Below, piece after piece: positions 4,728 to 61,537 of a DNA stretch of 64,000 nt. The notes below the pieces were generated by a model. That model was not told where the DNA came from, ran no database searches, and saw only the letters and a list, made by a program, of their open reading frames with translations. The stretch lies in the NCBI RefSeq assembly GCF_054482525.1, contig NZ_JBTHVG010000003.1. One strand, 5' to 3'. The position numbers were made by a program, and so were the translations under genes. The stretch is from a plasmid. The number at the start of each line of letters is the position of its first letter. Positions within the stretch are counted from its first letter, which is position 1.

Positions 4728-4891
4728 TAAGAAACTCCATTACTATCGTTCGTATGAGATAACTATCATTTCAGAATACTATGACTTCTTCCCGTATAGA
4801 ACTAATCGCTCACGCCAACTGGGCGAAGCCAACCGGTTCCGCCACTTCGCTCATTGGTTTTTAGGCGTAAGCACTGAAGCCAGTCTCCATG

Positions 4892-11544: not shown

Positions 11545-11574
11545 ACGGCAGGTATCGCCTGTCATTTTACCCTT

Positions 11575-11793
11575 GTGAGGACAATACTGATGAACCATGA
11601 GAGCCGAACTGTATACCTGAACACGGCCATTGAGGCCCTGCTGAAAGCTGAGGCGGCTCTGAACGATCTGGCATTAGCCTATGAGCTTAAACCTGATGAA
11701 AAGGCAAGCGCATGCCATCCCAGAACCGGCACACTTTCCACTGCGTCCCAGGTAAAAAAACTCCGCCGTGTCCTTGAGAAGCAGAAGGTATGA
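11575..11793 (+). CDS. hypothetical protein
   Basis: ORF. Confidence 0.25.
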   Translation: MRTILMNHESRTVYLNTAIEALLKAEAALNDLALAYELKPDEKASACHPRTGTLSTASQVKKLRRVLEKQKV

Positions 11794-12199
11794 AGGGCTG
11801 CATCAGCCAGGCCCGGATATAAATACATGCTCTGCCAGGTGAGTACCACTGCCCGGTAGCCGAATGATAAGTTTTGATTTCACGGTTGCAATTTCTCCCT
11901 CTGGCATCACTGCTCCACGATGCACCCCGATCAGCTTAGCGTCTGAAAATGAAGATGCACCGGACCTGCATGAAGCGGAACGGTGCCCAGCTGAGTGTTT
12001 GTGGGCACAATGAACCGCAATTTCATGATGGGAATGAAAGATGGCTGGTGGCCCGCTGATATGAACGCTTACCCTGCATAACGTTACTAACCACAATCTT
12101 TTCACTAAAAGAAAAAAGGGTTCCTCCGCTTTAGAGGAACCCTTTCAAAAGGTGCCGATGGCATACTAATCCACACCCTGAAAAGAGGGGGGTTGCCCC

Positions 12200-44354: not shown

Positions 44355-46055
44355 ATCGGAGAACCACGGCAGCCTGGCGGCTGCAAATTGAAAACCGCCC
44401 CGGTTCGTCCTGTTGTTGCCGCACGCCCCGCAGAATATGTATGCTCTGAGGACCTGTTTTATTAAGGACTCATCCCCTTATGTTGACCCGCAAAAGTATC
44501 GATACAGTTCTGCTCTCTGTTGGTGCTGAGAAGCTCTCACAACGAGAATGGGACTGGATGAAAATGCTCAAACCCATGGACCCACCACCTGCGATGGTGA
44601 CGACCTCCATCCTGAAGCGCCGTGGCGATACAGCAGCCCTTACCCTGCTACAGGATACCGGGGTTTAATCCATCCTCATGTTGTCCGGTTTTACTCCCCG
44701 CCCTCTGAAACGTCTGTTCACAGCCAACCAGTGCTGGACGTCCTTCCTGGATGCGGGCGGTCTGCGCGATATCGAGGTTGAAGCCGTCACCAAAATGCTG
44801 GCCTGCGGCACACGGATACTGGGTGTAAAAGAGTTCGGGTGTGATAACCCGGACTGTCAGCACGTAAAGTACCTGACCAACTCATGCGGCAGCCGTGCCT
44901 GCCCGTCCTGCGGAAAGAAGGCCACAGACCTGTGGACAGCAACACAGCTGAATCGTCTTCCTGACTGCGACTGGGTACATCTGGTCTTCACCCTGCCGGA
45001 CACGCTGTGGCCGGTGTTCGAAAGCAACCGCTGGCTGCTGAATGACGTGTGCCGTCTGGCGGTGGAGAATCTGCTGTATGCCGCCCGAAAACGGGGGCTG
45101 GAACCCGGTATCTTCTGCGCCATCCACACGTATGGCCGTCGTCTCAACTGGCATCCGCATGTACATGTGTCTGTAACCTGTGGAGGTCTGAATAAGCATG
45201 GTCAGTGGAAAAAGCTGAGCTTCCTGAAAGACGCGATGCGTTCACGGTGGATGTGGAATATGCGGCAGCTGCTTCTGAAAGCGTGGTCAGAGGGGATGGC
45301 AATGCCGGAGTCGTTGTCACATATCACGACGGAATCACAGTGGAGAAGCCTGGTGCTGAAATCCGGCGGAAAATACTGGCATGTGTACATGTCGAAGAAG
45401 ACAGCCGGAGGGCGGAATACGGCACGCTACCTGGGTCGTTATCTGAAGAAGCCACCAATAGCGGCTTCCCGACTGGCTCATTACAACGGAGGGGCAAGCC
45501 TGAGCTTCCGTTACCTGGACCACAAAACGGGAGAAACGGCGACGGAAACGCTGACACAGCGTGAGCTGGTCGCGAGGCTGAAACAGCACATCCCGGAGAA
45601 GTTTTTTAAGATGGTGAGGTACTTCGGGTTCCTTGCCAACCGTGTGTGTGGAGAGAAGCTGCCGCAGGTGTACCGTGCACTGGGGATGGATAAACCGGAA
45701 CCAGTGGCGAAAGTGTGCTATGCACAAATGGTGAAACAGTTCCTGAGTCGTGACCCGTTCGAATGCGTGCTGTGTGGCTGCCGGATGGTATACCGCCGGG
45801 CCATTGCGGGGCTGAATGTATCAGGGCTGAAGAAAAACGCGCGGGATATCAGTCTACTGAGGTATATGCCGGCCTGACACAGGCTAAGTGTGCCCGGGAA
45901 TCGGTGAAAGTATAAAAAACAGCCTGTTACGGTATAAAAATCGACCATACAGAGAGGGAAACCACCGGAGTGGTGGGAAAAGCAGAAAGGCTCACGTGGC
46001 ATAAGGCGTGGACAATGGTATCGACTGGTTTTTCAATTTCCTATACGTCAAGCCT
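44355..46055 (+). mobile_element. IS91-family insertion sequence (IS1294-like); ends approximate
   Basis: Rolling-circle transposase gene plus small upstream ORF; no inverted repeats; right end near '...tttttcaatttcctatacgtcaag'. Interrupts the iteron field. Confidence 0.6.
44678..45877 (+). CDS. IS91-family rolling-circle (HUH/Y2) transposase
   Basis: N-terminal Zn-binding 'CQHVKYLTNSCGSRACPSCG', HUH-like 'WHPHVHV', C-terminal Tyr-containing region. Confidence 0.75.
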   Translation: MLSGFTPRPLKRLFTANQCWTSFLDAGGLRDIEVEAVTKMLACGTRILGVKEFGCDNPDCQHVKYLTNSCGSRACPSCGKKATDLWTATQLNRLPDCDWVHLVFTLPDTLWPVFESNRWLLNDVCRLAVENLLYAARKRGLEPGIFCAIHTYGRRLNWHPHVHVSVTCGGLNKHGQWKKLSFLKDAMRSRWMWNMRQLLLKAWSEGMAMPESLSHITTESQWRSLVLKSGGKYWHVYMSKKTAGGRNTARYLGRYLKKPPIAASRLAHYNGGASLSFRYLDHKTGETATETLTQRELVARLKQHIPEKFFKMVRYFGFLANRVCGEKLPQVYRALGMDKPEPVAKVCYAQMVKQFLSRDPFECVLCGCRMVYRRAIAGLNVSGLKKNARDISLLRYMPA

Positions 46056-46075: not shown

Positions 46076-46925
46076 CTGACAATGGTAGTGATTGGATGAT
46101 CTCACTACTGTTGTCACTCAGTTCTTTGAGCGGACCCTTCCCTCGGTTGGTCGGCATTAACAACGGTAGTGACTCGATTGGCTCACTGCCATTGTCATCG
46201 TGTAAATGACGTACCTTATCAGCTCAGCTGAAAGCAATGACAACGGTAGTGACTCTAATTGCTCACTGCCATTGTCGTCGTGTCTATTGAGAGCCTTATC
46301 AGTGCACCTGAAAAGCAATGACAACGGTAGTGATTCTAATGGCTCACTACCGTTGTCACCGTGTGTATTGAGAGGATGGTCCACTTAACTGGACGTATAT
46401 GACAATGGTAGTGACTTTAATAGCTCACTACCATTGTCGGTGTGTGAATTGAGAGGATGAGCAGCTCAGCTGTACGTCCATGACAATGGTAATGACTTAA
46501 TGAGCTCACTACCGTTGTCACCCTGTTAATTAAGAGGCTCATCTGCTCTTCTGGAAGGCTATGACAACGGAAGTGACTTGCTGGGCTCACTGCCATTGTC
46601 GCCGTATGAATTGAGAGGATCATCCGCTCTTCTGGATGGCAATGACAACGGTAATGACTTAATAGGCTCACTACCATTGTCACCCTGTGAATTGAGAGGA
46701 TGATCTGCTTAACCAGACGGCCATGACAACGGTAGTGACTTTCTGGGCTCAATACCGTTGTCACCCTGTGAGTTAAGAGGTTGACCCGCTCTACTGGACG
46801 GCCATGACAACGGTAGTCACTTTCTGGGCTCACTACCGTTGTCGCCATATAGAATGAGAGGAGCATCAGCTCAACTGAACGGCAATGACTACAGTAATGA
46901 GCTGGATGAAGCATAACCATTGACA
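46076..46925. repeat. tandem array of ~81-bp units, each containing a palindromic iteron pair
   Basis: Unit starts read at ~46076, 46157, 46236, 46318, 46399, 46480, 46561, 46642, 46723, 46804, 46885; unit core atgacaacggtagtgac-N-gctcactaccgttgtcac; degenerate copies continue to ~47320. Confidence 0.8.
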
Positions 46926-47388
46926 TCTGGCCCAACCGGAAGCCGTATTCGCCAATCCAATCGAGATTCACAATGGCCGTGACTCGCCGCATTAAGTTCC
47001 GGTGTCCTCCCAAAGCTGAACGCACACTCGGAGGACAATGACAATGCCAGTAAGGTACACATCATTACCATTGTCACTATAGCTACCAGAGAAGCCGGGA
47101 TTTGAATGTCGATGGTAGTGAGTGGGTCAACTCACTGCCATTGTCACCCCGTTACGATATTTTCCGTTGGATGTACTGGCCAATGAAGTAAAGCGTAGAA
47201 ACCGGGTGTTAACAGGTGACTCAGGAGAAAGCGTTGAATTTCGCAATCTCGATCTACATAGGGTGGTAGAGAACAATGACAACGGTAATGACTTTTGACT
47301 CATTACCGTTGACGTGAAAGAGCGGGCTGGGACTAACGAAAATCGAAGAAGTAATTTAGCACCCGGAGCCTAAACCGCCGGGTTAACT

Positions 47389-48477
47389 TTAGCTGGCGTT
47401 GCTGTTCTTTTTCTGGCTTCGAAGACTACGAATATAGCGCAGTTCTTCAGCGGTTAAATCATGGACGGTAAGAACATCATCGCCGTCAATCGGGTCAGCT
47501 GGTGGGCATAACTCACCTTCTAAAACAGAAGACCCTGAGTTCTCTTCTTCATCTTCAACCACTTCTAAAGGAGGCTGAGTATTGTTCAAATTCAGATCGG
47601 GATCCCGCTTATGAATCTGGAAGTATACTTTTCCGTCTTTCTTAATTTCGGTGTACTTGAGGTATCCTATCGATGCCAACTCTTCAAGAGCCTTTCTCAC
47701 GGTAGCATTCTGACTATTTGCTCGTGTTTTGAGGTTCAGACGATTTTTCAGCCGAGTAAGGGATATCGGTATAGGATTTGGCGGTAATGACTCTATGAAC
47801 GTATAGAGAGCCTGGGCGCTTTCCTTCTTGGCCAACTCCTTAATTGCCTTCAGCTGCATCAAAACCTTATGATCGTATTGATAGAGCTCGAAAATCTTAG
47901 GATCAACCTGAAGGACAACCTGATCTGATTCCGGGTCTAACAGGGCAGACTGTACCAGATGCGTTGTATAGACTTTGGACGAGTTATTACTGGTGAACGA
48001 CAAGGTAACGGATGCTAACCTGCGTAAGGAGGCGTCTATACGTTTTCTGGACGCTGTAGATGAGCGATAATTTTCAGGCGTACATAGCTTGAGGAATTCA
48101 GTGAATTTTAAGCTTATCGTGTCATTGTTAATCGGATGATTGGCATAGGTTCGAATGATGCCCATCCACGTCTTAAAATCTACTGACATATTAAGACGCT
48201 CACCGACAATTGAAATATTGGTGAACCCCTCGCTCTCCATTAAAGAGAGCGTCTGTAACTCTTTCGTTGCGTCAAAGCCAACCGTTTTATATTCCCGATT
48301 TTGACGCCCCACACTCTTTGGTGATGGGACGAACAGCCCGAGCCGCATCAAAGCAATAGACTGCACCGTACGGTTGCTGTTAGGACGCAAAATGATGTCT
48401 TTACCTGATTCTTTCTCTCTAACAGAGAAAGCCCTGGTGACCAGGTCCTGCTGCTCAGTATCTTTCTCTTTAGTCAT
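47389..48477 (-). CDS. repA: iteron-type replication initiator RepA (P1/RepFIB group)
   Basis: Segments 'NRTVQSIALMRLGLFVP', 'DFKTWMGII', 'AQALYTFIESLPPNPIPISLTRLKNRLNL' match my recollection of P1 and RepFIB RepA; flanked by iterons on both sides. Confidence 0.75.
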   Translation of the reverse strand: MTKEKDTEQQDLVTRAFSVREKESGKDIILRPNSNRTVQSIALMRLGLFVPSPKSVGRQNREYKTVGFDATKELQTLSLMESEGFTNISIVGERLNMSVDFKTWMGIIRTYANHPINNDTISLKFTEFLKLCTPENYRSSTASRKRIDASLRRLASVTLSFTSNNSSKVYTTHLVQSALLDPESDQVVLQVDPKIFELYQYDHKVLMQLKAIKELAKKESAQALYTFIESLPPNPIPISLTRLKNRLNLKTRANSQNATVRKALEELASIGYLKYTEIKKDGKVYFQIHKRDPDLNLNNTQPPLEVVEDEEENSGSSVLEGELCPPADPIDGDDVLTVHDLTAEELRYIRSLRSQKKNSNAS

Positions 48478-48548
48478 AATAAGTTATCACTGAATGTGTA
48501 AACAGATTGGTGAATAGTAAGCCCCAGCGAACTCTATGTCACTGGATG

Positions 48549-48719
48549 GATCATTGTGATGATCCATATCTGTGCATAAGTTCTACCTAAAAAAACGACT
48601 CCACTCATTAAAACTTGGCAAAAACTCTTTGCATACAATGACCTGCAACTCTTATCAACAACGGATCAGATCAAGTTAAAAAGATCTAATGAAAAGTCAC
48701 TACTATTGTCGCTCTGATC
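48549..48719. promoter_or_regulatory. repA promoter/origin-proximal region with six GATC sites and a palindrome
   Basis: GATC at 48549, 48561, 48664, 48669, 48683, 48716; palindrome ggatcattgtgatgatcc; DnaA-box-like ttatcaaca near 48652. Confidence 0.4.
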
Positions 48720-48800
48720 ACTACTGATGTCAAAAAACTCATTACCAACGTTATAATAATCACTACTAATGTCAAAATAATCACTACTGTTGTCACTGAT
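48696..48800. repeat. upstream iteron cluster 1 (five ~21-bp direct repeats)
   Basis: Repeats of cactacYRWTGTC at ~21-22 bp spacing, ~220 bp 5' of repA. Confidence 0.65.
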
Positions 48801-49108
48801 CACGTCTCAGGCCTTGTGCCGTCTGGCCTGGAGGCAGCGGGGATCTCTTTTGATCTATCAGGAACACTAAGGTACTAATTATTGGAACTACCTTGTGGAA
48901 AATGGGGATAAATAAATGCTTAGTTCTTATACAGGTCTCAACTTGCCTCCCTGATAAAAACTGTCGTCAAAGCTAAATCGCAGCCACAGGCATTTTCGGT
49001 GGATAAATTTTTGAGAAATAGAAGCATACATGCAGACTCGTGTCGCAAGTAATTGAAAGTAATGATTTATTTAAATAATGCGAGTCACCTTACCTCACAG
49101 TGGAAGTT

Positions 49109-49220
49109 TAAGTCTAACCTCACTACCATTGTCACTTAAAATCATTACCAACGTCGAAATAGTCTCTACCATTGTCTTTTAAGTCACTCCCGTTGTCACT
49201 TATGTCGCTACTGTTGTCAG
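49109..49220. repeat. upstream iteron cluster 2 (five ~21-bp direct repeats)
   Basis: cactaccattgtcac-like repeats at ~21-bp period. Confidence 0.6.
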
Positions 49221-49447
49221 TGACAATGCTCCAGCCCAGTAACCATGCGGCCTACAGCGTACCGGGATCTTCTTTGTACTCTCTGGCACCTTTGGGATCA
49301 TTTATTGGATCTACATGAGGGATAAAATCTTTTGACGATTTCGTAGTGCAGTTATACCAGCGACTTAGCAAGACAAAAGCTGCAATTTAGTGACGAGTTA
49401 CTAGTCTGCCCAACAAGAGCAATGCAGAGAAGATATGTGGTGAAATG

Positions 49448-49481
49448 ACCATGGTAGTGAGTCTAATCACTACCATGGTCC
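49448..49481. repeat. isolated palindromic iteron pair
   Basis: gaccatggtagtgagtctaatcactaccatggtc. Confidence 0.55.
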
Positions 49482-49584
49482 GCAGTAAGCGTTACTTACG
49501 CAATGAACGTCGGACTGATTTGCAACAACATGGGCTACGGCGCATCAGAAGGCGGCCGTTGTGCTTCAGCAAAACAGCCCTGCT

Positions 49585-52041
49585 TTATTTTAATTCTTCA
49601 ATGTTAATCATGAACTCAGATCTGCCAGTAAGGCCGGATACAGCAGGGAAAATAGGAAAGCTACGGCTGTCCCCGAGCCCCAAATCCAGTTGAAGCTCTT
49701 TGCTTTCACCTGGCATCGCAGAAACGCCATTTACAGTCACGCCGAATGCAGCGTCCTTACGGACAGTAAGCACTGCGTCCTGAAGCCCTGTAGCGATTGA
49801 ACCATCCTTTTTACGCAGCTGGCTGGCATACAGAACAGCCAGAGCAGTATTGTCAGATGTTTTGAGAGAAGCATTGACAGCTAAGGTTTTCAGATTCTCT
49901 AGCCTGACGAGATTGTTTGGAAGGTAGTTAAATTCGACTGAGCTTTCTTTAACGTTGTTCATCTCATCTTTGGCCTGAACTGTGAGAGTGTATGTTTCGC
50001 CTTCATTAAGAGACGGAAAGATCTTGGGATAATTAGGTGCATACAGGTTGTTTCCCAGATTCACCCAAGACAATTCCACCGCATCAGAAACAGGGCCACC
50101 GCGAAGAGTCATACGGCTTAAGGATGGTTTAGTTAGAGCATCGGTGAGCTGTATACGGACGTTCTCCAGCCCATATACTGTTACGTTTTTGCTGATCGGT
50201 TTTCCTTCGTAGCTAATACTTACAGATGGTGCTGTATTATCAACGACAACTGTTTGATAAGGGAGGTTACCGGTATTGTTGAATGTATCTTGGGCATTAA
50301 TCACCACGTTATAACTGCCTTCTGGTACCTCTTTCATGTTGAACTCATACGTGTAGTTCCCAGACGCCATATTTCTACCTGTTTGTTTGCCGGTTACGCT
50401 TATTTCTGCGTTGTTACGGTTTTTATCTGACAACCAAACTCGATTTACATAAACATGGTCGAAATATGAACCATCTCCAGGTTGATTCACGTAAACCTGG
50501 AGAATGTTGGTGGTTTCATTGTAATCAAATCCAGTGACGGAGGGACCCAGTGTATGCCAGGCTATATTCTCCCATATAGGGGCAAAGAAGGTTGCTTCGG
50601 TGGTTGACCTTACTTCATAGCCACTATGAAGATAACCGGTAGTGCCATTTATAATATCCTGGGGCAAAGAGACGGTACAGGTTGTTGAGCCAGCTGGAAT
50701 ACTGCATGTTGCTCCGCCAGTGATTTTTTGATCATATGGCCTGGCCTGTACATTGAATCGGATATTAGTAAGTTTTATAGGCATATCAGATGCCTTGAAC
50801 AGGTTCCAGTTTACGCTGTTGAACCATGTTCCATCAGCCTTTTGTCGTTCTATGGGTGAACTTCCCCAAGCCGGACTCTTTACAGAGGCAGGATCCCAGT
50901 TGAGCCAGCTGGCATACTGACCAAGATCTCCTCCAGACCATTGATATGTATTCACAGGTCTATAGTAGTTTCCATCTAAGGCACCCTGTGGCAGCTTAAC
51001 TTCCACGTAGACATAGGTGGCATCTTCGGAAAGGACCTGTACTCCGCCATAGTTATTGGTAATGCTCATGCCACCATTTCGATATGGCTTCCAGTTAGTT
51101 CTTGGGATACGTATAACCAACTTGTAGGGGTTTTCCAGCACTGTAAGGCCTCGTTTAAACGGGACGTATCCCGAAGAAATGCCGGGTACAACACTGGTGC
51201 TTACACGTGAGTCATGAACTGCAAATGGCGTAAATTCTCCCATTTGATCGTCATATAAAAACCGCTGGGGAGGAATGTTAAGCGTATTTCCTGCCAGGTC
51301 CGTAACGATGAAATTGAAGGTGAATTCTTCATCAAGATCACTTGAGGGCATGCCAGCCTGGGTGTTCATATCTTTAATCCACGGATAGACCGCACGTTTA
51401 TTGGCTGTGTCATAACTCAGGTTATTGTCGGAGACCACAGAACCATTACTTCGTTTAATGACAAGACGGATCTTGTCAATTCCACTAGCATCCTCAATAC
51501 CGTCTGCAAATATAGAAAACTGGCCACTACCGCCTCGGCCCAACTCCCAAAGTGGCCCAGAAAGTACCATGTCGTAACCTGCGTTTTGACTCGGATAAAT
51601 ACTCTTATAGCGTGGAGGAGTTGTATCAACGATGAAATGATAAGTAGATGTGCTCACTACAGTCTGGCGAATATCCAGAGTTTCATTGACTACAGTAAAG
51701 GTCCCTTCTCCGAGCGCCGGTAGAACCATATCCTTTCCATAGTATTCTGTTCCATCGGCAGCAACGATACGATCTGCAACGCTCGTTTTGGTCGAGACGG
51801 AGGAATACATAACCTTTTTATCGCTGTCTCGTGTGACCGTCACTCGCTCGTACCGATCAAGACCCGATATCAAGTTCAGAGTCAAAACACCAGCGGGATT
51901 AAGATATGTTTGTGTTGCAGGTTTGATATTCCGAACAGCCTTATTGGTATCTGTAAATGAGTAGCTAAATACCTGAGCATGTGCCGAAGATACAGTAGCA
52001 AGGGCAGTTGCAACCATGCAGCCAATTAGAGTTTTACGCAT
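49585..52041 (-). CDS. large secreted protein, paralog C
   Basis: Signal peptide 'MRKTLIGCMVATALATVSSAHA', 818 aa, blocks shared with A and B; ATG with GGAG RBS; two palindromic motif copies 150-235 bp upstream. Confidence 0.6.
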   Translation of the reverse strand: MRKTLIGCMVATALATVSSAHAQVFSYSFTDTNKAVRNIKPATQTYLNPAGVLTLNLISGLDRYERVTVTRDSDKKVMYSSVSTKTSVADRIVAADGTEYYGKDMVLPALGEGTFTVVNETLDIRQTVVSTSTYHFIVDTTPPRYKSIYPSQNAGYDMVLSGPLWELGRGGSGQFSIFADGIEDASGIDKIRLVIKRSNGSVVSDNNLSYDTANKRAVYPWIKDMNTQAGMPSSDLDEEFTFNFIVTDLAGNTLNIPPQRFLYDDQMGEFTPFAVHDSRVSTSVVPGISSGYVPFKRGLTVLENPYKLVIRIPRTNWKPYRNGGMSITNNYGGVQVLSEDATYVYVEVKLPQGALDGNYYRPVNTYQWSGGDLGQYASWLNWDPASVKSPAWGSSPIERQKADGTWFNSVNWNLFKASDMPIKLTNIRFNVQARPYDQKITGGATCSIPAGSTTCTVSLPQDIINGTTGYLHSGYEVRSTTEATFFAPIWENIAWHTLGPSVTGFDYNETTNILQVYVNQPGDGSYFDHVYVNRVWLSDKNRNNAEISVTGKQTGRNMASGNYTYEFNMKEVPEGSYNVVINAQDTFNNTGNLPYQTVVVDNTAPSVSISYEGKPISKNVTVYGLENVRIQLTDALTKPSLSRMTLRGGPVSDAVELSWVNLGNNLYAPNYPKIFPSLNEGETYTLTVQAKDEMNNVKESSVEFNYLPNNLVRLENLKTLAVNASLKTSDNTALAVLYASQLRKKDGSIATGLQDAVLTVRKDAAFGVTVNGVSAMPGESKELQLDLGLGDSRSFPIFPAVSGLTGRSEFMINIEELK

Positions 52042-52194
52042 ATGATGCTCCGGGAATAGGTTATAGCCTTATTCTACGGATTCAGCCTACAAGGTCCGGT
52101 CGGATAAAGTGATAATTTGCCTGTTAAAAGAGACATCAAGTGAGAAAGCAACCAACGTACAGAATGCAAAATGGCGGCAGTGCATCTGGATGAC

Positions 52195-52211
52195 GCAAAA
52201 GTAACTTTTTG
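52195..52211. promoter_or_regulatory. palindromic motif copy (gcaaaagtaactttttg)
   Basis: Read directly; 5' of paralog C. Confidence 0.4.
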
Positions 52212-52259
52212 TATCCACTTTTTTGGATTTTAGCCTTCAAAATGAGTATTCAACCAATC

Positions 52260-52275
52260 ATAAAAGTAACTTTTG
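52260..52275. promoter_or_regulatory. palindromic motif copy (ataaaagtaacttttg)
   Basis: Read directly; second copy 5' of paralog C. Confidence 0.4.
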
Positions 52276-52535
52276 ATAGACGCTGCTCCTTTATGTTTGC
52301 CAATTGTGCTGATATGTTTGTAAATTCAAGGAAGCGAGATTTTAAAAGCATCTGTTGAGTCAAATTTATGTAAAATAACAGGGAAACCATCACTTCTAGG
52401 TTGAGGAAACCCAATGTTATACATGCTCTTATGCTGTTTTCTGATAGACTGGCCCCCTGAATCTCCAGACAACCAATATCACTTAAATAAGTGATAGTCT
52501 TAATACTAGTTTTTAGACTAGTCATTGGAGAGCAG

Positions 52536-52901
52536 ATGATTGATGTCTTAGGACCGGAGAAACGCAGACGGCGTACTACACAGGAAAAGATCGCTATTGT
52601 TCAGCAGAGCTTTGAACCGGGAATGACGGTCTCCCTTGTTGCCCGGCAACACGGTGTGGCAGCCAGCCAGTTATTTCTCTGGCGCAAGCAATACCAGGAG
52701 GGAAGTCTTACTGCTGTGGCCGCAGGAGAACAGGTCGTTCCTGCCTCTGAACTTGCTGCTGCCATGAAGCAGATTAAAGAACTCCAGCGCCTGCTCGGCA
52801 AAAAAACGATGGAAAATGAACTCCTTAAAGAAGCCGTTGAATACGGGCGTGCAAAAAAGTGGATAGCGCACGCGCCCTTATTGCCCGGGGATGGGGAGTA
52901 A
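52536..52901 (+). CDS. insC: IS2 InsC (OrfA)
   Basis: '[26 protein letters not shown]...' recognised as IS2 OrfA. Confidence 0.85.
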
Positions 52902-53764
52902 GCTTAGTCAGCCGTTGTCTCCGGGTGTCGCGTGCGCAGTTGCACGTCATTCTCAGACGAACCGATGACTGGAAAGATGGTCGCCGCAGCCGTCACTCAG
53001 ATGATACGGATGTGCTTCTCCGTATACACCATGTTATCGGAGAGCTGCCCACGTATGGTTATCGTCGGGTATGGGCGCTGCTTCGCAGACAGGCCGAACT
53101 TGATGGTATGCCTGCTATCAATGCCAAACGTGTTTACCGGATCATGCGCCAGAATGCGCTGTTGCTTGAGCGAAAAACCGCTGTACCGCCATCGAAACGG
53201 GCACATACTGGCAAAGTGGCCGTGAAAGAAAGCAATCAACGATGGTGCTCTGACGGGTTCGAGTTCCGCTGTGATAACGGAGAAAAACTGCGAGTCACGT
53301 TCGCGCTGGACTGCTGTGACCGTGAGGCACTGCACTGGGCAGTCACTACGGGCGGCTTCGACAGTGAAACAGTACAGGACGTAATGCTGGGAGCGGTGGA
53401 ACGCCGCTTCGGCAACGAGCTTCCGGCGTCTCCAGTAGAGTGGCTGACGGATAATGGTTCATGCTACCGGGCTAATGAAACACGGCAGTTTGCCCGGATG
53501 TTGGGGCTTGAACCGAAGAACACGGCGGTGCGGAGTCCGGAGAGTAACGGCATAGCAGAGAGCTTCGTGAAAACGATAAAGCGTGACTACATCAGTATCA
53601 TGCCTAAACCAGACGGGTTAACGGCAGCAAAGAACCTTGCAGAGGCGTTCGAGCATTATAACGAATGGCATCCGCATAGTGCACTGGGTTATCGCTCGCC
53701 ACGGGAATATCTACGGCAGCGGGCCAGTAATGGGTTAAGTGATAACAGGTGTCTGGAAATATAG
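52859..53764 (+). CDS. insD: IS2 InsD (OrfB)
   Basis: 301-aa ORF overlapping insC 3' end; recognised as IS2 OrfB. Confidence 0.85.
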
Positions 53765-53918
53765 GGGCAAATCCATCTGATGCTCAACAGTACATTCGTT
53801 ATGTTCAGAGCAATGTCTGCAATAAGTAAAGGATCCGCTAAAGAAAACCGGTCTGAAATATCGCTGATAGTCCTAGCAACACTTGGAATCGCATCACCAT
53901 TCAGGTAATGACTCCAAC

Positions 53919-54422
53919 TTATTGATAGTGTTTTATGTTCAGATAATGCCCGATGACTTTGTCATGCAGCTCCACCGATTTTGAAAACGACAGCGACTTC
54001 CGTCCCAGCCGTGCCAGGTGCTGCCTCAGATTCAGGTTATGCCGCTCAATTCGCTGCGTATATCGCTTGCTGATTACGTGCAGCTTTCCCTTCAGGCGGG
54101 ATTCATACAGCGGCCAGCCATCCGTCATCCATATCACCACGTCAAAGGGTGACAGCAGGCTCATAAGACGCCCCAGCGTCGCCATAGTGCGTTCACCGAA
54201 TACGTGCGCAACAACCGTCTTCCGGAGCCTGTCATACGCGTAAAACAGCCAGCGCTGGCGCGATTTAGCCCCGACGTATCCCCACTGTTCGTCCATTTCC
54301 GCGCAGACGATGACGTCACTGCCCGGCTGTATGCGCGAGGTTACCGACTGCGGCCTGAGTTTTTTAAGTGACGTAAAATCGTGTTGAGGCCAACGCCCAT
54401 AATGCGGGCGGTTGCCCGGCAT
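53919..54422 (-). CDS. insB: IS1 InsB
   Basis: 167-aa ORF overlapping insA end. Confidence 0.85.
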
Positions 54423-54616
54423 CCAACGCCATTCATGGCCATATCAATGATTTTCTGGTGCGTACCGGGTTGAGAAGCGGTGTAAGTGAACTGCAGTTGC
54501 CATGTTTTACGGCAGTGAGAGCAGAGATAGCGCTGATGTCCGGCGGTGCTTTTGCCGTTACGCACCACTCCGTCAGTAGCTGAACAGGAGGGACAGCTGA
54601 TAGAAACAGAAGCCAC
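54341..54616 (-). CDS. insA: IS1 InsA
   Basis: 91-aa '[43 protein letters not shown]...'. Confidence 0.9.
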
Positions 54617-54688
54617 TGGAGCACCTCAAAAACACCATCATACACTAAATCAGTAAGTTGGCAGCATCACCCACCATTCATTGTCGCA

Positions 54689-55153
54689 ATGATTACTATT
54701 AATGAAAGTATGACATCTAAAACAGTAACAGATTTTTCTTTGGGTGCTCAGTGGTACGGAATGGTTTCAGCGGTAGCGCTAATGGGGTTATATGCTCGAC
54801 GCGTTTGGAAAGAGAAGAAGTCCTTATTTACTGGCGCTTTCCTGGCCTCTTCCTTAATGGCCTTTATTTTTACTGACAGCCTTGTTTTCGTATCCCAGAA
54901 GGACACCGGCGTTCTGGCTACTTTCGTACTCGATAAAAACGCTGGAGATATTGATTGTAGTCGCCCGGCTATGATTGTCCATTACAGTAAAGGTGTTCCA
55001 ACGGACTGGCGTTGCCCAACCAGTATCATGTTGATGGCGTATTCTTCATATCCTTTTTTACCCTGGCCTGAGTATAGCCATGGTACCAGCCAGTCTCTTA
55101 CGGTTGTTATTGATACATTTATGGAAAACGCTGTTAATCTCAGCCAAAAATAA
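54689..55153 (+). CDS. membrane hypothetical protein (ORF begins 18 bp after IS1 end)
   Basis: ORF with hydrophobic helix; followed by hairpin terminator; 5' region may have been disrupted by IS1. Confidence 0.35.
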   Translation: MITINESMTSKTVTDFSLGAQWYGMVSAVALMGLYARRVWKEKKSLFTGAFLASSLMAFIFTDSLVFVSQKDTGVLATFVLDKNAGDIDCSRPAMIVHYSKGVPTDWRCPTSIMLMAYSSYPFLPWPEYSHGTSQSLTVVIDTFMENAVNLSQK

Positions 55154-55157
55154 AAAA

Positions 55158-55185
55158 TAAACCTCACTAGTGAGAGGTTTTATAA
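55158..55185 (+). terminator. rho-independent terminator-like hairpin
   Basis: aacctcactagtgagaggtt stem followed by tttat. Confidence 0.45.
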
Positions 55186-55210
55186 ACCTGAGCCACCAAT
55201 CTAATTAACT

Positions 55211-55492
55211 CTATATTTTTGTTTTAGCTTTTTTAAAGATAGACTTACCGAATAAAACAGCAATTATAGAGCAAAGGCCTGGCGTTAGGACAAAAGCTAA
55301 TAATGCACTGCCAAAACTTGTCATTTCAGGCACCAGGAACCAGCTGATAGGCCACGTCAGGGCTGGTAAATTTAGCGGATCATAAAGCGCATGTAGAGCG
55401 CTTAACACACAGTAAAGTGCTAAAAAGCAAACTAGATAAACAACGATCCACATTTTAATTTGCTCAGCAATTTCAAATTTTGGACTGCCCAT
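55211..55492 (-). CDS. small membrane hypothetical protein
   Basis: ORF with hydrophobic helices. Confidence 0.35.
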   Translation of the reverse strand: MGSPKFEIAEQIKMWIVVYLVCFLALYCVLSALHALYDPLNLPALTWPISWFLVPEMTSFGSALLAFVLTPGLCSIIAVLFGKSIFKKAKTKI

Positions 55493-55934
55493 GCTTTACC
55501 TCAGTGGCTGAATATTGATGGTTAATATCTTTAATCACCCGTAAGCACTTAGTGCATACCTTAGTTCGATTTGTCTGCTTGTCCAGAGTGTATTTAACTT
55601 CAAGTTGACCTCCAGCATTAAGCAAAGTGAGCATCTCATCTTCTAACACGCTTCGGTAAATGGTCTTGGCCGAGAGTGTGCCCGGTAACGAGTACTCAAC
55701 ATAATTGTTTGAAACTCTTACCGATTTAGGGATTTTACCACTGAGCTGGGTTTCATTCGTTGAAGGCATTACAGTTACTTTAATCACAGTTGCCGGTGAC
55801 CAGAAATCCTGATAACGCACTTTATGAATTTTATCAGCTCTAAGGCCTAACCACACATTTCCGGCGATAAGAACAATAAGCAATCCATAAACTGATCGTC
55901 GAATGTTACGCCTTTTAATCACAATGTCCCCCAT
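55473..55934 (-). CDS. membrane-anchored hypothetical protein
   Basis: ORF with N-terminal TM. Confidence 0.35.
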   Translation of the reverse strand: MGDIVIKRRNIRRSVYGLLIVLIAGNVWLGLRADKIHKVRYQDFWSPATVIKVTVMPSTNETQLSGKIPKSVRVSNNYVEYSLPGTLSAKTIYRSVLEDEMLTLLNAGGQLEVKYTLDKQTNRTKVCTKCLRVIKDINHQYSATEVKHGQSKI

Positions 55935-56155
55935 CCCTCAAATATCATTCTAAATAACTGCACCAGGATATCATGAGCGTAATTAATAGAATTCTTCATA
56001 ACCGGGGTTTTCAGTTGAGTTTGCGGACTCTTTACTTTGCGGTTTCTCACCCTCTAGTTGAGTATCCCTGACAGGCTTGGATTTACCCATGCTCCTCTGA
56101 AAGGTATCCATAACAAACTCAATATCTTCTTCTGGCAGGCTGGTGGGTTGGTTGC

Positions 56156-57847
56156 TCATAGGACTTCCTCTTGTTGAATACGTTCGGCGTACAGGATGCG
56201 AACCGAAACGGTCGTGTTTTCAAACTCGTTCTCAAAAACGTCCATCCATTCCGTCCGGAATTCTTCCCCCAAAAGGTTATCGAGCCCCTGAAGAGATAAT
56301 GGAAGAACGGCTGCTAGAGATCCCCCGGCTGCGAGATGAGATGCAGCTGCCTGGAGATGCAGCCTGGCCCGGTTATCGGCAAAAGGTGGGTTCATCACGA
56401 CATAATCAAACTTCTTCTGTTGATTAGACTTAGACCATGTGAGGAAGTCAGCTTCTGTCGTATCGTATCCCTTAGCCCGGGAGATAAGGCAATTCAAAGT
56501 ATCAAGCTCGATGCCAGTAACGATCACACCGGCAGGGAATGATTTAAGCAAATCCGCATGGCCAATATTAGGCTCCAGGAGGGTATCCCCTTCCCCTGCA
56601 CCAAGCAGGGAAGATACATATTCGCTGATTCGGCAAGATGAAGGGTAAAACTGATGCGATACAATATCAGGCATCTCCCCTATCTGGCCGATGTAACGAA
56701 TAACCTCACACGGATCATAGGAAAATGTCACATCGTATTTTGTTACTGTTGCCCCTAAGAACCGAAGGGTGTCAGCGGCAACACTCGAAGATTTGCGTTC
56801 GGCGAGAGACCCTAAAGATGTCCAGCAACTCCATTTATTGTCCCCGTCATTTTTAAACATCAGTTCAGAAAGCTGCATCCGGGTATCAAAGTCGATGCAC
56901 TGCTTAAGTACAGGGAATGCCTCCAAAGATTTCTTGCTATGAGCCATACGGTCGGCAGGTAATGCCAGCGGTACGATAGCTGATAAAATATTGTTAAGCC
57001 GCTCGGCGATATCAGGGTGGACGTCAATATGCATTGATCCATTTTTGTAAACCCTGAAACGAATACTGTTGCCATCGATGCAGATCCATTTTCTGAACCC
57101 CTCATGTTCGACCAACGCCTCAACCAATGATTTGGTGTTATGGATCGCCTTCACCTGTTCGCCACGGAAGAATGCGCATATAACGCGGAGCTCGCTCAGC
57201 GGTGAAATGCCAGACTCTTTAAAATCCACCCTTAATTTCTGCCAGGGGTATTTAGACGGCTCGCAAACTCCGGTAGTGATCATGCGGGTGGAGAACCCAA
57301 AAGCTTTGTTTGTCTTGTGACTGCGGCTCAGAGACTGGAAGACGTCGTAAACCCTTTCTTTAATAAATTGATTGCGGTCATTAAGCAAAGCAACGACTGT
57401 GCCCACTACAGCGTCAGCTGTGAAATCAGGGATCACCTGAGGCGGCATAATATAACGGTCGGCCGTAAACTGCTTATCCCATTCGTTACGTTTGGCATCC
57501 GACATGATAGGCAAAACATCAGTGAGTGCCATAACGCATTTCCAGTATTCTGATCTCAGAGCGTTTTCTGCGAACAAAGCATCCGCTTCTGAGATGCTGT
57601 GGTTGTAGCCTGAGAGATAAGAATAAAGTTTCTGGTGATTGTGGGTTTTGAACTGGACAGCCATGAGTTTCAACAAGCAGAGTTCATCATTATAGGACTC
57701 AACAAGATCCGCGATAATGCCGAGCTCTTTGCGCATATCTGGAAGAAATGTTTCAGGAGAGCTAACCACCAGGCTATGAGAGGTTGTTAAAGCCAGTACG
57801 CTGTGACCTGCATTATCGGGTTTAGCTTCAGAATCAAGAGATGACAT
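56156..57847 (-). CDS. N6-adenine DNA methyltransferase-like protein with ~380-aa N-terminal extension (long form)
   Basis: C-terminal 'ITGIEL' and 'DYVVMNPPF' motifs paralogous to 39005-39829. Confidence 0.6.
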   Translation of the reverse strand: MSSLDSEAKPDNAGHSVLALTTSHSLVVSSPETFLPDMRKELGIIADLVESYNDELCLLKLMAVQFKTHNHQKLYSYLSGYNHSISEADALFAENALRSEYWKCVMALTDVLPIMSDAKRNEWDKQFTADRYIMPPQVIPDFTADAVVGTVVALLNDRNQFIKERVYDVFQSLSRSHKTNKAFGFSTRMITTGVCEPSKYPWQKLRVDFKESGISPLSELRVICAFFRGEQVKAIHNTKSLVEALVEHEGFRKWICIDGNSIRFRVYKNGSMHIDVHPDIAERLNNILSAIVPLALPADRMAHSKKSLEAFPVLKQCIDFDTRMQLSELMFKNDGDNKWSCWTSLGSLAERKSSSVAADTLRFLGATVTKYDVTFSYDPCEVIRYIGQIGEMPDIVSHQFYPSSCRISEYVSSLLGAGEGDTLLEPNIGHADLLKSFPAGVIVTGIELDTLNCLISRAKGYDTTEADFLTWSKSNQQKKFDYVVMNPPFADNRARLHLQAAASHLAAGGSLAAVLPLSLQGLDNLLGEEFRTEWMDVFENEFENTTVSVRILYAERIQQEEVL

Positions 57848-57978
57848 TTTACCGGTCCTTTAGAAAAAACTTTTACCAGGATAGCAACGTCGCTCAGTAA
57901 CCTAATAGGTTCAGTGACACGAAAAAGTTTTTTATGTCTCTGAATAAAACTTAAAGATGTCAACTCATAGAAAGAAGC

Positions 57979-58008
57979 AAAAAAAAAGCCCCGCATAAAC
58001 GGGGCAAG
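57979..58008 (-). terminator. rho-independent terminator (minus strand)
   Basis: gccccg-cataaa-cggggc stem followed on the minus strand by a T-run, 3' of the ParB-like gene. Confidence 0.55.
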
Positions 58009-58094
58009 AACGATACATGGAGGTTTAAAAAAGGCGGGCAAAAAGCCTGAATCCTTAATGACTCTGACAAAACCAGCACTTTGCCAAAAGTAAA

Positions 58095-59258
58095 TTATTC
58101 TGCGTCCGGCTGTGGGTCAGTATCCTGATCGGTCTCTTCCCCTGCCTTCTTAGCATTTTTTTTACGTGGGTATTTTGGCTTCTCACCATTAAGTTTTGCC
58201 TGACGATTCTCCGCACGGCGAAGCTGCTTGTTCTCTGATTCTGTGATCTCTTTTGAAAGATTTCTCAACATCTCCAGAGTACTGCGGTTCAACGTAATGT
58301 TGATTTCTTCGTCAGCACTTGAATCTGTCAGCTCCGGCAATTCAATATCCCCCAGTTTCTGTAATAAGCTGGTGGTGATGAGTTTGACGCCTTCTACGGC
58401 TTTTGTGGCAATAACCGGCGGAATCCGTGCTGGCTTGAAGTCTGAAGGTCTGACTCGTACCTGACCATGTTGGGTTTTTTTCACCGTGATGCCATTCGCA
58501 TCGGCCTGCTCAAGTTCTGCGATCATCTTCTTGATACGTGAAATTGCTTCTGTTTCGCCGAGCTCATCGATCAGTGAAAGCACGTTAACATACGAAATAG
58601 CGTCAGCATGAATCCATTTCTTGATAACAACAGAACAGGTTGTCAGGCGGATAAGAGAACTGATGGTCGTCGGGCTTTTATTTTCACGTTGAGCAATTCG
58701 TTCGAGTGACCAGCCAGCAAGAGAATGTAGGCGACGATAGGACTCGCCAAGCGCAACAGGAGAAAGCGCAAGACCACGGTTACCATCAATGGTCGCGAGC
58801 TCACAGCCAATTTCATCTTCTTTAATCTCAACGCAAAGGATTGTGATGTCATGATCTTCATCACATGCCATCATTGCGGCTTTTAAACGGCAGTGCCCCT
58901 GGCGAACAAAAGGTACCCCATCAATGACACGTACTCGGATAGGGTCTACATAGTCACCTCGAATGTAGGCATTCTTGATGTTGTAGATGTGTTCTTCAAC
59001 CTCAGGGAGCTTATAGTAATCGTCACCCATTCCCATTTCGCGGGAGTTGAAGCCTGGCGTGACCTGAATTACTGAAGGGTGGATAGCCCATGCTTTCTGG
59101 TCACTTACTTCAGTACAAAGTTCAGGGTTTGCATCACGGAACTGTTTAAGCCCAGTGACGTAACGGCCTGTGCCAGTAACTACTGAAAAGGCAACATGGG
59201 CCGTTTTAAAGACCTTGTCATTAGCTTGCTGTGTAGGTTCTGTCAGTAAAACACTCAT
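58095..59258 (-). CDS. ParB-like nuclease-domain protein (paralog 2)
   Basis: 'VPFVRQGHCRLKAA' ParB/Srx motif, HTH-like segment, basic/acidic C-terminal tail. Confidence 0.6.
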   Translation of the reverse strand: MSVLLTEPTQQANDKVFKTAHVAFSVVTGTGRYVTGLKQFRDANPELCTEVSDQKAWAIHPSVIQVTPGFNSREMGMGDDYYKLPEVEEHIYNIKNAYIRGDYVDPIRVRVIDGVPFVRQGHCRLKAAMMACDEDHDITILCVEIKEDEIGCELATIDGNRGLALSPVALGESYRRLHSLAGWSLERIAQRENKSPTTISSLIRLTTCSVVIKKWIHADAISYVNVLSLIDELGETEAISRIKKMIAELEQADANGITVKKTQHGQVRVRPSDFKPARIPPVIATKAVEGVKLITTSLLQKLGDIELPELTDSSADEEINITLNRSTLEMLRNLSKEITESENKQLRRAENRQAKLNGEKPKYPRKKNAKKAGEETDQDTDPQPDAE

Positions 59259-59535
59259 AGGGGCTCCGTTACATTTTTCTGCTTACTTTCTGCGTAGCGG
59301 GGATACTACCGAAAAAAAAATTCATAATTTTTCGCAAAAAAGGTACTTTTTGAGCCTATTCTGATTTTTTACAAAAAAAGGTGGCTCCCCATTACTTGTG
59401 ATGGCATAAAAATCGCTTCATAAACAAATACATAAATCCAAAACATAAAGTTCAGGTATAAGTGAGGAAAAATCTTATAAATCCGAAATGCTGAAAGTCA
59501 AAACTGTGCGTCTTAAACAACTTTTTTTTGCTCCC

Positions 59536-59550
59536 TAAGTTATTAGTTAA
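59536..59550 (+). promoter_or_regulatory. box variant (ctaagttattagtta) upstream of Dam-like gene
   Basis: ~60-75 nt 5' of the Dam-family gene start. Confidence 0.3.
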
Positions 59551-59606
59551 AGCCCGTGGTTAGGTACGATACCAGCACCTAAATTTCTCTCTCAGGTATA
59601 GACACT

Positions 59607-60440
59607 TTGACTCGACATCTCAGACACATGCCGATAATCAAATGGGCTGGTGGAAAAACGAAACTGATGCCTTTCATCAGCCATCACTACCCACACGATC
59701 ATAGTTGCCGGTGGGTAGAACCCTTTATAGGCGGTGGTGCCGTTTTTCTGAACATGTTTGCACAAAATGCATTGCTTGCAGATAGCAATCCAGACTTGAT
59801 CAACCTATACAGGACTATTCAAAGACAGAAAACTAACTTTATAAATCAGGTCCAAAACTTGGCGGATAAAACCTTTGTCGAAAAGGACTACTATGAGATG
59901 AGGGACCGTTTCAACAAAACCTGTATTTCTGGTCAATCGCTTCAAAGAGCGGCTTTGTTTTACTCCCTGAATCGCCTGGGCTATAACGGTATGTGCCGCT
60001 ATAACTCAGAAAGAATCTATTCAGTGCCGTGGGGGAAACATACAGAACTGAAGCTTGACCTCAATAAAATAGACTACCTTTCATTTCGTCTTTCAGGTAT
60101 TGAACTGATCACCGCTGGTTTTGAGGAGACTCTGGCCGCAACCGGTGAAGGAGATCAGATTTACTGTGATCCGCCATATGACAAAACAAGCAAAACTAGT
60201 TTTGTCAGTTACGATGGTAAACCGTTCAGCCAAAGCGACCACGTGCTGTTAGCAAATATGCTCGTTGACGCTCACAGAAAAGGCGCTGCTGTTGCGATAT
60301 CAAATAGCCTGACATCATTCACTTTGGGCCTCTATGAAGAGCGTGGATTCGTCATACACAGACTCAGCGCTTACCGATCCGTAGGAAGTAAGCCGAATAC
60401 ACGGAAAACGGAAACAGAAATACTGGCCGTGCTGAAATAG
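59607..60440 (+). CDS. Dam-family N6-adenine DNA methyltransferase
   Basis: 'IIKWAGGK' N-terminal motif and 'DPPY' motif IV; probable true start at internal Met (~59628). Confidence 0.7.
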   Translation: MTRHLRHMPIIKWAGGKTKLMPFISHHYPHDHSCRWVEPFIGGGAVFLNMFAQNALLADSNPDLINLYRTIQRQKTNFINQVQNLADKTFVEKDYYEMRDRFNKTCISGQSLQRAALFYSLNRLGYNGMCRYNSERIYSVPWGKHTELKLDLNKIDYLSFRLSGIELITAGFEETLAATGEGDQIYCDPPYDKTSKTSFVSYDGKPFSQSDHVLLANMLVDAHRKGAAVAISNSLTSFTLGLYEERGFVIHRLSAYRSVGSKPNTRKTETEILAVLK

Positions 60441-60448
60441 AGTAAATT

Positions 60449-61306
60449 CTAATCAACTAGGCTAATCCATTCCTCAAAAGTTAATACCTCAGGGTAAGTT
60501 CGTTGAACATAAGGTATAAACTGAAGCTCTTCTATTCTCCGGTCGCCCCTCTTTCCTTCGCAAATAAATGAAATGAGTCCTTGCTGAGAAAGGCCAGTAA
60601 GGACGCTCATAAGTCTTATATTTAGACTTTTAAGCTGTAAGTCGTTATTAATGTCCTCCACTTTATGAGAGCTCTGGCCTGAACGTTTAAGATACTCGTA
60701 AACCATGAAATTCGAATTTCGTCGTTTTAACAATTTTTCGGTTATGCATTCCTGAATGAAGTCGCCAAGAGCATCTAAAAGCGGACTGAGAACTACCGGG
60801 AAAGTTAATGTGTAACTTTGAGAAGTTTTAGACAAAGTGAATGAGTTTAGAAAGCTAAAGTTTAGTCTCTTTTTTGAATATGGAACATAAGCGACAAGAG
60901 TAGTCGACATAACAGTAAGTAAAGCTTCAAGATGGTTCACTGTTATTAAAGTGGTTTTATCTGTATTTCTAAGATTATGGAAATCAATAAACGCTACTCT
61001 TGAACGGCTAAGCCAATCTTGTACTTTAATGTCGATAGAAAATTGCGAGATATGATTTGAACATTCATTTTGGGTGATAGGGCATGCAGACGAAAGATGG
61101 TTATGGATTATCATGCATAGCACAAAAAAAGGAAAACGGCAGGCTGTGGGGCATTGAAAACCGGTTAAAGAAAGCTTAGACGTTTCATATGCGCTTACCG
61201 GAAAAGTAACTTTTCTTAACGTTGGCTTTGACGATGTTCTTGCATTTTTACAAATGAAACCGAGACCCAGATCATTGTGCATTTTAAAGTCCATCTCCAT
61301 CATCAC
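60449..61306 (-). CDS. hypothetical protein (true start probably internal)
   Basis: Low-GC ORF; a palindromic motif copy lies inside the annotated N-terminus. Confidence 0.3.
   Translation of the reverse strand: MMMEMDFKMHNDLGLGFICKNARTSSKPTLRKVTFPVSAYETSKLSLTGFQCPTACRFPFFVLCMIIHNHLSSACPITQNECSNHISQFSIDIKVQDWLSRSRVAFIDFHNLRNTDKTTLITVNHLEALLTVMSTTLVAYVPYSKKRLNFSFLNSFTLSKTSQSYTLTFPVVLSPLLDALGDFIQECITEKLLKRRNSNFMVYEYLKRSGQSSHKVEDINNDLQLKSLNIRLMSVLTGLSQQGLISFICEGKRGDRRIEELQFIPYVQRTYPEVLTFEEWISLVD
61197..61216. promoter_or_regulatory. palindromic motif copy (ccggaaaagtaacttttctt)
   Basis: Read directly; inside annotated 5' end of 60449-61306. Confidence 0.35.
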
Positions 61307-61537
61307 CTTTTAGCCTTAACTGTATGGTATTGGTATACAAAAAATTAAAATTATAATTAATAAGATTATCATTTTTTTACAATAGAAAAGGTTCTGATAG
61401 AGGGGAATTTAAATGTAAAAGATTTATACTCGCAGATCTTTATGAGGGATAAAACCCATTGCGTAAGCAACAATATTACGTGAGTGAGTCCTAACGACAG
61501 TTAAAGTCTTGGCTCTATATTTAAGCAGCAAAAACAT

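Follow-up and report, generated by a model that had tools for sequence, protein, structure and literature searches.

Sequential IS2 and IS1 insertions within a single 208-codon gene of an IncHI2 plasmid backbone

Features of the locus and identity of the two elements

The window analysed here is a 64-kb stretch of plasmid DNA (64,000 nucleotides), in which an IS2 element and an IS1 element lie 128 bp apart (53776-53903), each bounded by its own target site duplication (TSD), with three fragments of one gene around and between them. The features of the locus are as follows.

52297..52326, plus strand: candidate native sigma-70-like promoter, TTGCCA-18-TAAATT (9/12 in a consensus scan)
52414..52444, plus strand: 5' gene fragment from the reconstruction, codons 1-10 (MLYMLLCCFL) and base 1 of codon 11
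52440..52444, no strand: left copy of the IS2 TSD, TCTGA, present as a single copy in IS-free plasmids
52445..53775, plus strand: IS2 isoform (IS3 family, IS2 group), 1331 bp, apparently intact, with tnp genes codirectional with the interrupted gene
52536..52901, plus strand: IS2 orfA (insC), HTH protein of 121 aa, NF006928, equal to K-12 InsC
52853..52859, plus strand: IS2 A6G (AAAAAAG) −1 frameshift motif within the orfA/orfB overlap
52859..53764, plus strand: IS2 orfB (insD), 301 aa, DDE (rve) catalytic domain, NF006918 and Pfam rve
53776..53780, no strand: right copy of the IS2 TSD, TCTGA
53781..53903, plus strand: middle gene fragment from the in-frame reconstruction, codons 12-51 together with bases 2 and 3 of codon 11 and base 1 of codon 52
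53895..53903, no strand: left copy of the IS1 TSD, CACCATTCA, present as a single copy in p14EC029b and pSTM6-275
53904..54671, minus strand: IS1A-like IS1 of 768 bp, apparently intact, its ins genes antiparallel to the interrupted gene
53919..54422, minus strand: IS1 insB reading frame, 167 aa, Pfam DDE_Tnp_IS1 (E = 2e-78) and NF033558
54341..54616, minus strand: IS1 insA, 91 aa, Pfam Zn_ribbon_InsA and HTH_Tnp_IS1
54672..54680, no strand: right copy of the IS1 TSD, CACCATTCA
54681..55153, plus strand: 3' gene fragment, the remainder of codon 52 to codon 208 and the stop codon, from the reconstruction
55159..55180, no strand: terminator-like hairpin with flanking T/A runs between convergent gene ends, scored on the minus strand

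Sequence reading and a script showed that IS2 begins with TAGACTGGCCCCC... at 52445 and ends with ...GGGGCAAATCCA at 53775. Its termini, TAGACTGG... and ...GCAAATCCA, form imperfect inverted repeats with ends matching those of K-12 IS2A, and a repeat tool placed the terminal inverted repeat arms at 52454-52486 and 53735-53767. Two overlapping frames, an HTH-containing OrfA and a DDE/rve-containing OrfB, are bridged by the −1 frameshift motif as in other members of the family, and the 5-bp target duplication that is expected of IS2 is present as TCTGA on both flanks. OrfA scored 276 bits against the NF006928 model "IS2 repressor TnpA" (cut-off 229), OrfB scored 708 bits against the NF006918 model "IS2 transposase TnpB" (cut-off 597), and the Pfam domains HTH_Tnp_1 and rve were found in these proteins. 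The element resembles IS2A of E. coli K-12 in its equal length of 1331 bp with ungapped alignment, its termini, its orfA/orfB organization with an A6G frameshift, its 5-bp target duplication and an identical InsC. By contrast, it differs from IS2A by 55 substitutions (95.87% DNA identity), and 10 of the 301 InsD residues are changed (291/301, 96.7% identity). In the ISfinder convention, elements share a name when their DNA is at least 95% identical to the reference and/or their transposase at least 98% identical to it; here the DNA value lies above the 95% threshold while the InsD value lies below the 98% one. Judged by this sequence comparison, the element is best called an IS2 isoform and not the K-12 sequence itself. 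The PGAP label for IS2 of the window type is merely 'IS3 family transposase'.

The IS1 element starts with GGTAATGACTCC... at 53904 and ends with ...GTTGGCAGCATCACC at 54671, with 23-nt inverted repeat arms detected by the repeat tool at 53904-53926 and 54649-54671. An A6C frameshift motif was located at 54365, and the consensus scan found a promoter-like site for insA within the IRL end (54664-54637, minus strand), directed inward. K-12 IS1A has the same length of 768 bp, the same 23-bp inverted repeats, a 9-bp duplication and the same insA/insB arrangement with an A6C frameshift, and the two differ by six substitutions (99.22% identity), none of them noteworthy. The attributes by which the IS1 family is recognized were all found, namely 768 bp with repeats of about 23 bp, insA/insB with A6C, a duplication of 9 bp (8-11 bp being expected) and near-reference identity. 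The curated cut-offs of the protein models were exceeded by IS2 TnpA and TnpB as well as by IS1 InsA and InsB. Both elements look transposition-competent from their sequences and are full length with intact frames and frameshift motifs, and no further copy of either IS1 or IS2 was found in the 64-kb window. A preliminary description of this DNA, made from the letters alone, had proposed an IS2 starting at 52445 with TSD TCTGA, and an IS1 with TSD CACCATTCA at a distance of 128 bp. All of these coordinates proved correct to the base, and the identities of both elements were borne out by the protein models and the K-12 comparison.

Reconstruction of the interrupted gene and its predicted product

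For reconstruction, each element was deleted together with one copy of its TSD and the flanks were rejoined. This yielded a single in-frame 208-codon ORF running from ATG 52414 to the stop codon at 55151-55153, with GAGGA located 6 nt 5' of the ATG. IS2 interrupts codon 11 and IS1 interrupts codon 52, and the gene now exists as three pieces of 10, 41 and 157 codons. The middle piece constitutes most of the 128-bp spacer and is 100% identical to the corresponding sequence of IS-free plasmids. The two elements had initially been viewed as insertions into DNA beside a membrane-protein gene; instead, both actually lie inside one and the same gene. The 154-codon ORF at 54689-55153, with its ATG 18 bp past the IS1 end, corresponds to residues 55-208 and starts at the internal Met55. 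The suspicion that this ORF is truncated was right, as 54 more upstream codons are present in IS1-free relatives, whereas the further idea that its native 5' region had been removed or replaced was not, since this region survives as the displaced fragments at 52414-52444 and 53781-53903. An identical 5' end in relatives without IS1 had been named as the finding that would speak against truncation, and comparison with IS1-free relatives gave the opposite, the 5' end of the 54689 ORF not being the same without IS1. The three ORF fragments should accordingly be annotated as one pseudogene split by two IS elements and not as separate small genes.

Two PGAP models of the gene product exist, one of 208 aa (WP_000966519.1, in pSA186_MCR1) and one of 198 aa (WP_046788420.1, in pSTM6-275 and p14EC029b), the latter starting at an ATG that shares its A with the final position of the TCTGA duplication. 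A protein search retrieved homologs of 206-212 aa with 37-47% identity and full query coverage. Alignment showed that the N-terminal MLYMLLCCFL is conserved in the homologs with 40-47% identity, L6 being invariant and M4, C7 and F9 being present in at least 90% of them. Conservation of the first ten codons in such distant homologs indicates that the coding start lies upstream of the IS2 site, and hence that IS2 is intragenic. The 198-aa model, which is used even on IS-free plasmids, seems to be an artefact that stems from plasmids bearing IS2, with the conserved start 10 codons further upstream. The candidate native promoter lies about 90 bp 5' of ATG 52414 and now reads into the left end of IS2. 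The number of sigma-70-like sites in the region equals the expectation from shuffled sequence, and this promoter is a weakly supported candidate.

An AlphaFold2 model of the 208-aa protein built from a 19-sequence alignment (pLDDT 77.5, pTM 0.70) contains predicted helices at residues 2-26, 34-59, 65-96 and 99-122, followed by a small beta domain that holds the invariant C144 and a WRCPT motif, and then a C-terminal helix. Hydropathy is concordant with helices 1, 2 and 4. The gene product is predicted to be a small plasmid-borne inner-membrane protein with four helices and a Cys-containing C-terminal beta domain. In the model, the IS2 site falls within helix 1 and the IS1 site within helix 2, and the 154-aa remnant is without the whole of the former and the greater part of the latter in the four-helix bundle. 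Searches against Pfam and NCBIfam gave no family match above the curated cut-offs, the sub-threshold matches being SPW (18.6 bits versus 31.5) and DUF2127 (17 versus 24.3). Foldseek against the PDB returned 0 matches at E ≤ 0.001, with generic helical bundles only. A homolog with about 45% identity resides in another plasmid backbone, where its neighbours are mucAB-like, pemIK and DotM-type transfer genes and include no gene for an Ig-like protein, and because backbone and neighbours both differ from those described below, synteny gives no functional clue.

IncHI2 relatives and the order of the insertions

The reconstructed 1101 bp was found uninterrupted and 100% identical in 852 PLSDB plasmids of IncHI2 type, with hosts that include Escherichia, Salmonella, Enterobacter, Klebsiella and others, and the intact locus was also present in 193 complete E. 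coli genomes, nearly always on plasmids. That the excised sequence exists intact at 100% in 852 records puts the insertion pattern far beyond chance. A total of 1106 PLSDB plasmids match the locus, 954 of which are typed as conjugative. Window positions 46100-61314 are collinear with pSTM6-275 (IncHI2A, MOBH) at 99.97% except for IS2 and IS1. In pSTM6-275 the locus lies near repHI2, its neighbours being a divergent gene for an 818-aa Ig-like protein, with repHI2 3.1 kb past it, and convergent small genes followed by the gene for a DUF4942 protein. This collinearity with an IncHI2A plasmid bearing repHI2 indicates that the window represents IncHI2 backbone.

Queries with the whole region, or with the spacer and both IS elements, were swamped by IS copies and yielded no record holding the complete arrangement, and junction-specific queries were used instead. 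The IS2 right junction, queried with the terminal 60 bp of IS2 and the adjoining 128-bp spacer, was fully covered in 246 PLSDB plasmids, or about 22% of the 1106 carrying the locus. One plasmid with IS2 only, p14EC029b, matches 49716-53903, including the whole of IS2, with one mismatch and resumes at 54672 with 100% identity, the two pieces overlapping by exactly the 9-bp CACCATTCA. Taking IS1 and one of the two 9-bp copies out of the window thus gives the p14EC029b sequence. By contrast with the 246 plasmids for IS2, the IS1 junction was fully covered in 0 PLSDB (2024) records. The combined IS2-spacer-IS1 arrangement had 0 matches among the complete E. coli genomes of RefSeq, none of which carries the IS1 right junction at the same position (two near-misses only), and a junction-specific 42-aa ORF reading into IS1 at the left junction had no entry in the exact-product index. 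A draft contig of the IS2 lineage (L011) is unbroken across the IS1 site. Exact matches to the 154-aa remnant were considered as a possible sign of a shared IS1 truncation and were rejected, the contigs being drafts of the IS2 lineage whose sequence stops at the right end of IS2; another draft contig (L010) was rejected as a carrier of the IS1 junction and holds an IS91-family insertion.

Given the 246 IS2-junction plasmids and the identity of p14EC029b to the window minus IS1, sequence comparison places the IS2 insertion first and the IS1 insertion later. The absence of the IS1 junction from PLSDB, from RefSeq complete E. coli genomes and from the exact-product index suggests that the IS1 insertion is recent or private to the window's plasmid; the great gap in age between the two events had not been recognized in the preliminary description. 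The exact match of IS-free and IS2-only relatives, together with the lack of a further IS1 or IS2 copy in the window, also upholds the earlier view that these are simple insertions and not a composite transposon. As an inherited feature, the IS2 junction (TCTGA, codon 11) cleanly marks a large sub-lineage of IncHI2, the IS1 junction is a marker of the window's particular plasmid, and both are usable for epidemiological tracking, with little import beyond annotation and plasmid typing.

Probable sequential inactivation and competing readings

We propose that two independent, sequential and simple transpositions struck one IncHI2 backbone gene. The IS2 isoform entered codon 11 with duplication of TCTGA, and the IS2-bearing plasmid lineage then spread widely. 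An ancestor of the window's plasmid later gained an IS1A-like element, oppositely oriented, in codon 52 with duplication of CACCATTCA, leaving the gene in three pieces, most likely without a functional product, in a plasmid that seems to tolerate the loss. We assign a probability of about 0.92 to this reading, in which sequential simple insertions of IS2 and then IS1 hit a single IncHI2 backbone gene that is most likely dead. Judging from the interrupted frames, the gene is most likely inactive in the window's plasmid, and its function was probably impaired already in the lineage with IS2 alone. The wide spread of the IS2-bearing lineage suggests that the gene is dispensable for IncHI2 plasmid persistence and that its loss would be neutral.

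The insertions may alternatively reflect a gene that is a preferred IS target, or one selected for inactivation, the double insertion being part of a recurrent pattern. Several independent junctions within the same 627-bp gene are consistent with this idea. In pTB4019 and pTB4328, whose backbone is free of IS2, an IS1 in the same orientation lies 11 bp further upstream than in the window and is bounded by a separate duplication, TGGAATCGC. Contig L010, which has no IS2, carries about 1.84 kb of IS91-family sequence inserted at 53885/53886. In two other draft contigs (L014 and L015), the gene is joined at 54881/54882 to the end of an IS91-family element that is present in the window at about 44360, while a further one (L013) diverges after 54698. 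Three of the independent junctions fall within about 20 bp, and the flanks are AT-rich (35-46% G+C versus 52-57% in the IS elements). However, an equal-length control query in the neighbouring DUF4942 gene was non-contiguous in 8 of 1108 PLSDB records, and the residual of the target locus outside the single IS2 lineage is also 8 (1106 − 852 − 246). Moreover, the extra junctions come from a far larger draft collection without a baseline, and several of them may be assembly breaks or IS-mediated deletions. With 8 non-contiguous PLSDB records at both control and target, no enrichment was shown for a hot spot, and we consider a recurrent target unlikely. An even lower likelihood is given to the more specific proposal that 53884-53903 is a micro-hotspot of about 20 bp (with three independent hits, two of IS1 and one of an IS91-family element) and/or that the intact protein is costly and its inactivation repeatedly beneficial. 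If the intact protein were indeed costly, the IS2-disrupted lineage (22% of the PLSDB locus carriers) might have been successful partly through its loss. In pSA186_MCR1-type plasmids, an IS1 lies just downstream of the intact gene and replaces most of a 93-aa gene.

Hybrid promoters have been reported at IS2 and IS1 ends, as for IS2 at ampC, which raises the possibility that the insertions are regulatory, in which case an IS end would supply an outward or hybrid promoter for a shortened but functional protein (154 aa here and 198 or 191 aa in IS2-only plasmids). That PGAP annotates a 198-aa product immediately after IS2 in p14EC029b fits this possibility. Outward hybrid promoters at the IS ends, which the preliminary description had suggested looking for, did not emerge from the consensus scan, as no outward plus-strand site of at least 9/12 was present at the IS2 or IS1 junctions, and the best plus-strand junction score in a looser scan was 7/12. 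Apart from the inward insA promoter in the IRL end of IS1, the one good site near the junctions was a chance-level promoter-like hybrid on the minus strand at the IS2 right end. The 17 nt preceding ATG 54689 contain no purine-rich ribosome-binding site, the remnant would by the model be deprived of helix 1 and most of helix 2, and the conserved N-terminus argues that full length matters. A regulatory role is accordingly regarded as improbable. IS2 transposase read-through or a weak IS-end promoter could give some remnant transcript; nevertheless, the lack of a credible outward promoter or ribosome-binding site for the remnant favors the reading that sequential insertion has left the gene most likely dead.

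It is very improbable that the IS1 copy is an assembly artefact in the form of a misplaced repeat: its junction was seen in no other record, but a perfect 9-bp duplication of native sequence around a full-length 768-bp IS1 is the signature of real transposition and not a product of misassembly. IS1-flanked composite transposons such as Tn9 exist, and the window's elements resemble Tn9 in lying close together on a resistance plasmid; by contrast with Tn9, they are not two copies of one IS, have no cargo between them and carry a duplication each, in place of the same IS twice bracketing cargo within one outer duplication. That the IS2-128 bp-IS1 block arrived whole as a composite or co-mobilised unit is hardly credible despite the short spacing, given a perfect separate duplication for each element, a 128-bp spacer that is native to the gene and reads in frame with the sequence on either side, 246 IS2-only records, and elements of different families with no second copy in the 64-kb window.

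Sequential insertion of IS2 and IS1 is a textbook insertional inactivation by IS elements that are among the best known in bacteria, in a well-sampled plasmid family and is already known in kind. In papers listing IS1 and IS2 on IncHI2 plasmids, no description of this locus was found. Backbone-gene knockouts by IS elements have been described in an IncX4 plasmid, where IS2 lies in virB6, and in an IncHI2/HI2A/N plasmid, where IS100 lies in traI (PMC8386294). Similar to those cases, a large resistance plasmid here has one of its backbone genes truncated by simple IS insertion, while in contrast to them, two different IS elements occupy one small non-transfer gene without assigned function.

IS1 and other breaks in the membrane-protein gene

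The gene for the 208-aa membrane protein, which is split in the window by IS2 and IS1, is also interrupted or flanked by mobile elements in other assemblies.

Insertions in or beside the 208-aa gene (record coordinates)
2796-3572 of pTB4019 (L012, NZ_AP038818.1; also in NZ_AP038824.1): independent IS1 insertion in the gene
4008-4778 of pSA186_MCR1 (L002): IS1 directly downstream of the intact gene
2147-3983 of L010 (GCA_018566905.1, DAEFWB010000014.1): IS91-family insert of ~1.84 kb inside the gene, at window-equivalent 53885/53886

The IS1 site of pTB4019 lies 11 bp upstream of that in the window and is occupied in the same orientation, with TGGAATCGC as the target duplication and IS2 absent from the backbone; the upstream Ig-like gene of this plasmid is shortened too, with another IS3-family element abutting. 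IS1 just 3' of an intact gene was found in pSA186_MCR1, three similar PLSDB records and two seawater E. coli, the pSA186_MCR1-type junction falling at window-equivalent 55222-55213 with the convergent 93-aa gene mostly gone.

The window has an IS91-family element of its own, with an Ig-like paralog gene (41283-43703) on one side and the repHI2 region on the other.

IS91-family features of the window
44360-46050: IS91-family element (Pfam Zn_Tnp_IS91 and Y2_Tnp)
44678-45877, + strand: its Y2 transposase ORF

No similarity between this element and the L010 insert was detected by blastn. In two other assemblies (L014 and L015), the 208-aa gene abuts the terminal 78 nt of the window's element (44360-44437) at window-equivalent 54882. 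Finally, in L013 (a contig from Logan SRR8655894) the gene turns into unrelated sequence from 3173, past window-equivalent 54698, after which comes a gene encoding an ODP (PF19583) domain. Deletion, rearrangement or contig chimerism may explain this divergence.

Start codon and codon 77

RefSeq models of the gene disagree, giving 198 aa in pSTM6-275 (L001, 6345-6941) versus 208 aa in pSA186_MCR1 (3315-3941). The 198-aa model (WP_046788420.1) starts at an ATG created beside the IS2 site and has been applied even to IS-free plasmids, whose conserved 208-aa ORF is intact; it looks like a carry-over from an IS2-bearing lineage. Start codons are again inconsistent for the ~45% homolog (L007-L009, 6001-6693), whose annotated length is 230 aa or 212 aa depending on the record. 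The backbone around this homolog carries mucAB-like, pemIK and DotM-type genes, and one copy belongs to a 5.6-Mb chromosome record. At codon 77 (window 54766), the window encodes Tyr77 (QWYGM), whereas Ser77 (QWSGM) is found in the majority of close relatives in the protein database. Although minor, this polymorphism may be useful for tracing the sub-lineage.

Neighboring genes

The replication region of the window sits between two large Ig-like paralogs of common domain architecture (DUF4165, Big_3_2 and Big_3_3). Ig-like proteins encoded on IncHI plasmids have been associated with conjugation.

Flanking genes of the window
41283-43703, + strand: secreted Ig-like paralog, 806 aa
49585-52041, - strand: secreted Ig-like paralog, 818 aa
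56156-57847, - strand: protein with a DUF4942 domain at its N-terminus, 563 aa

The last of these had been labeled a methylase block in the preliminary description; every match of its C-terminal part to methyltransferase models (MTS, N6_Mtase, Eco57I) was under the cut-off. A separate Dam-family methyltransferase is annotated in relatives ~3.5 kb beyond the DUF4942 gene (11415-12227 in pSTM6-275).
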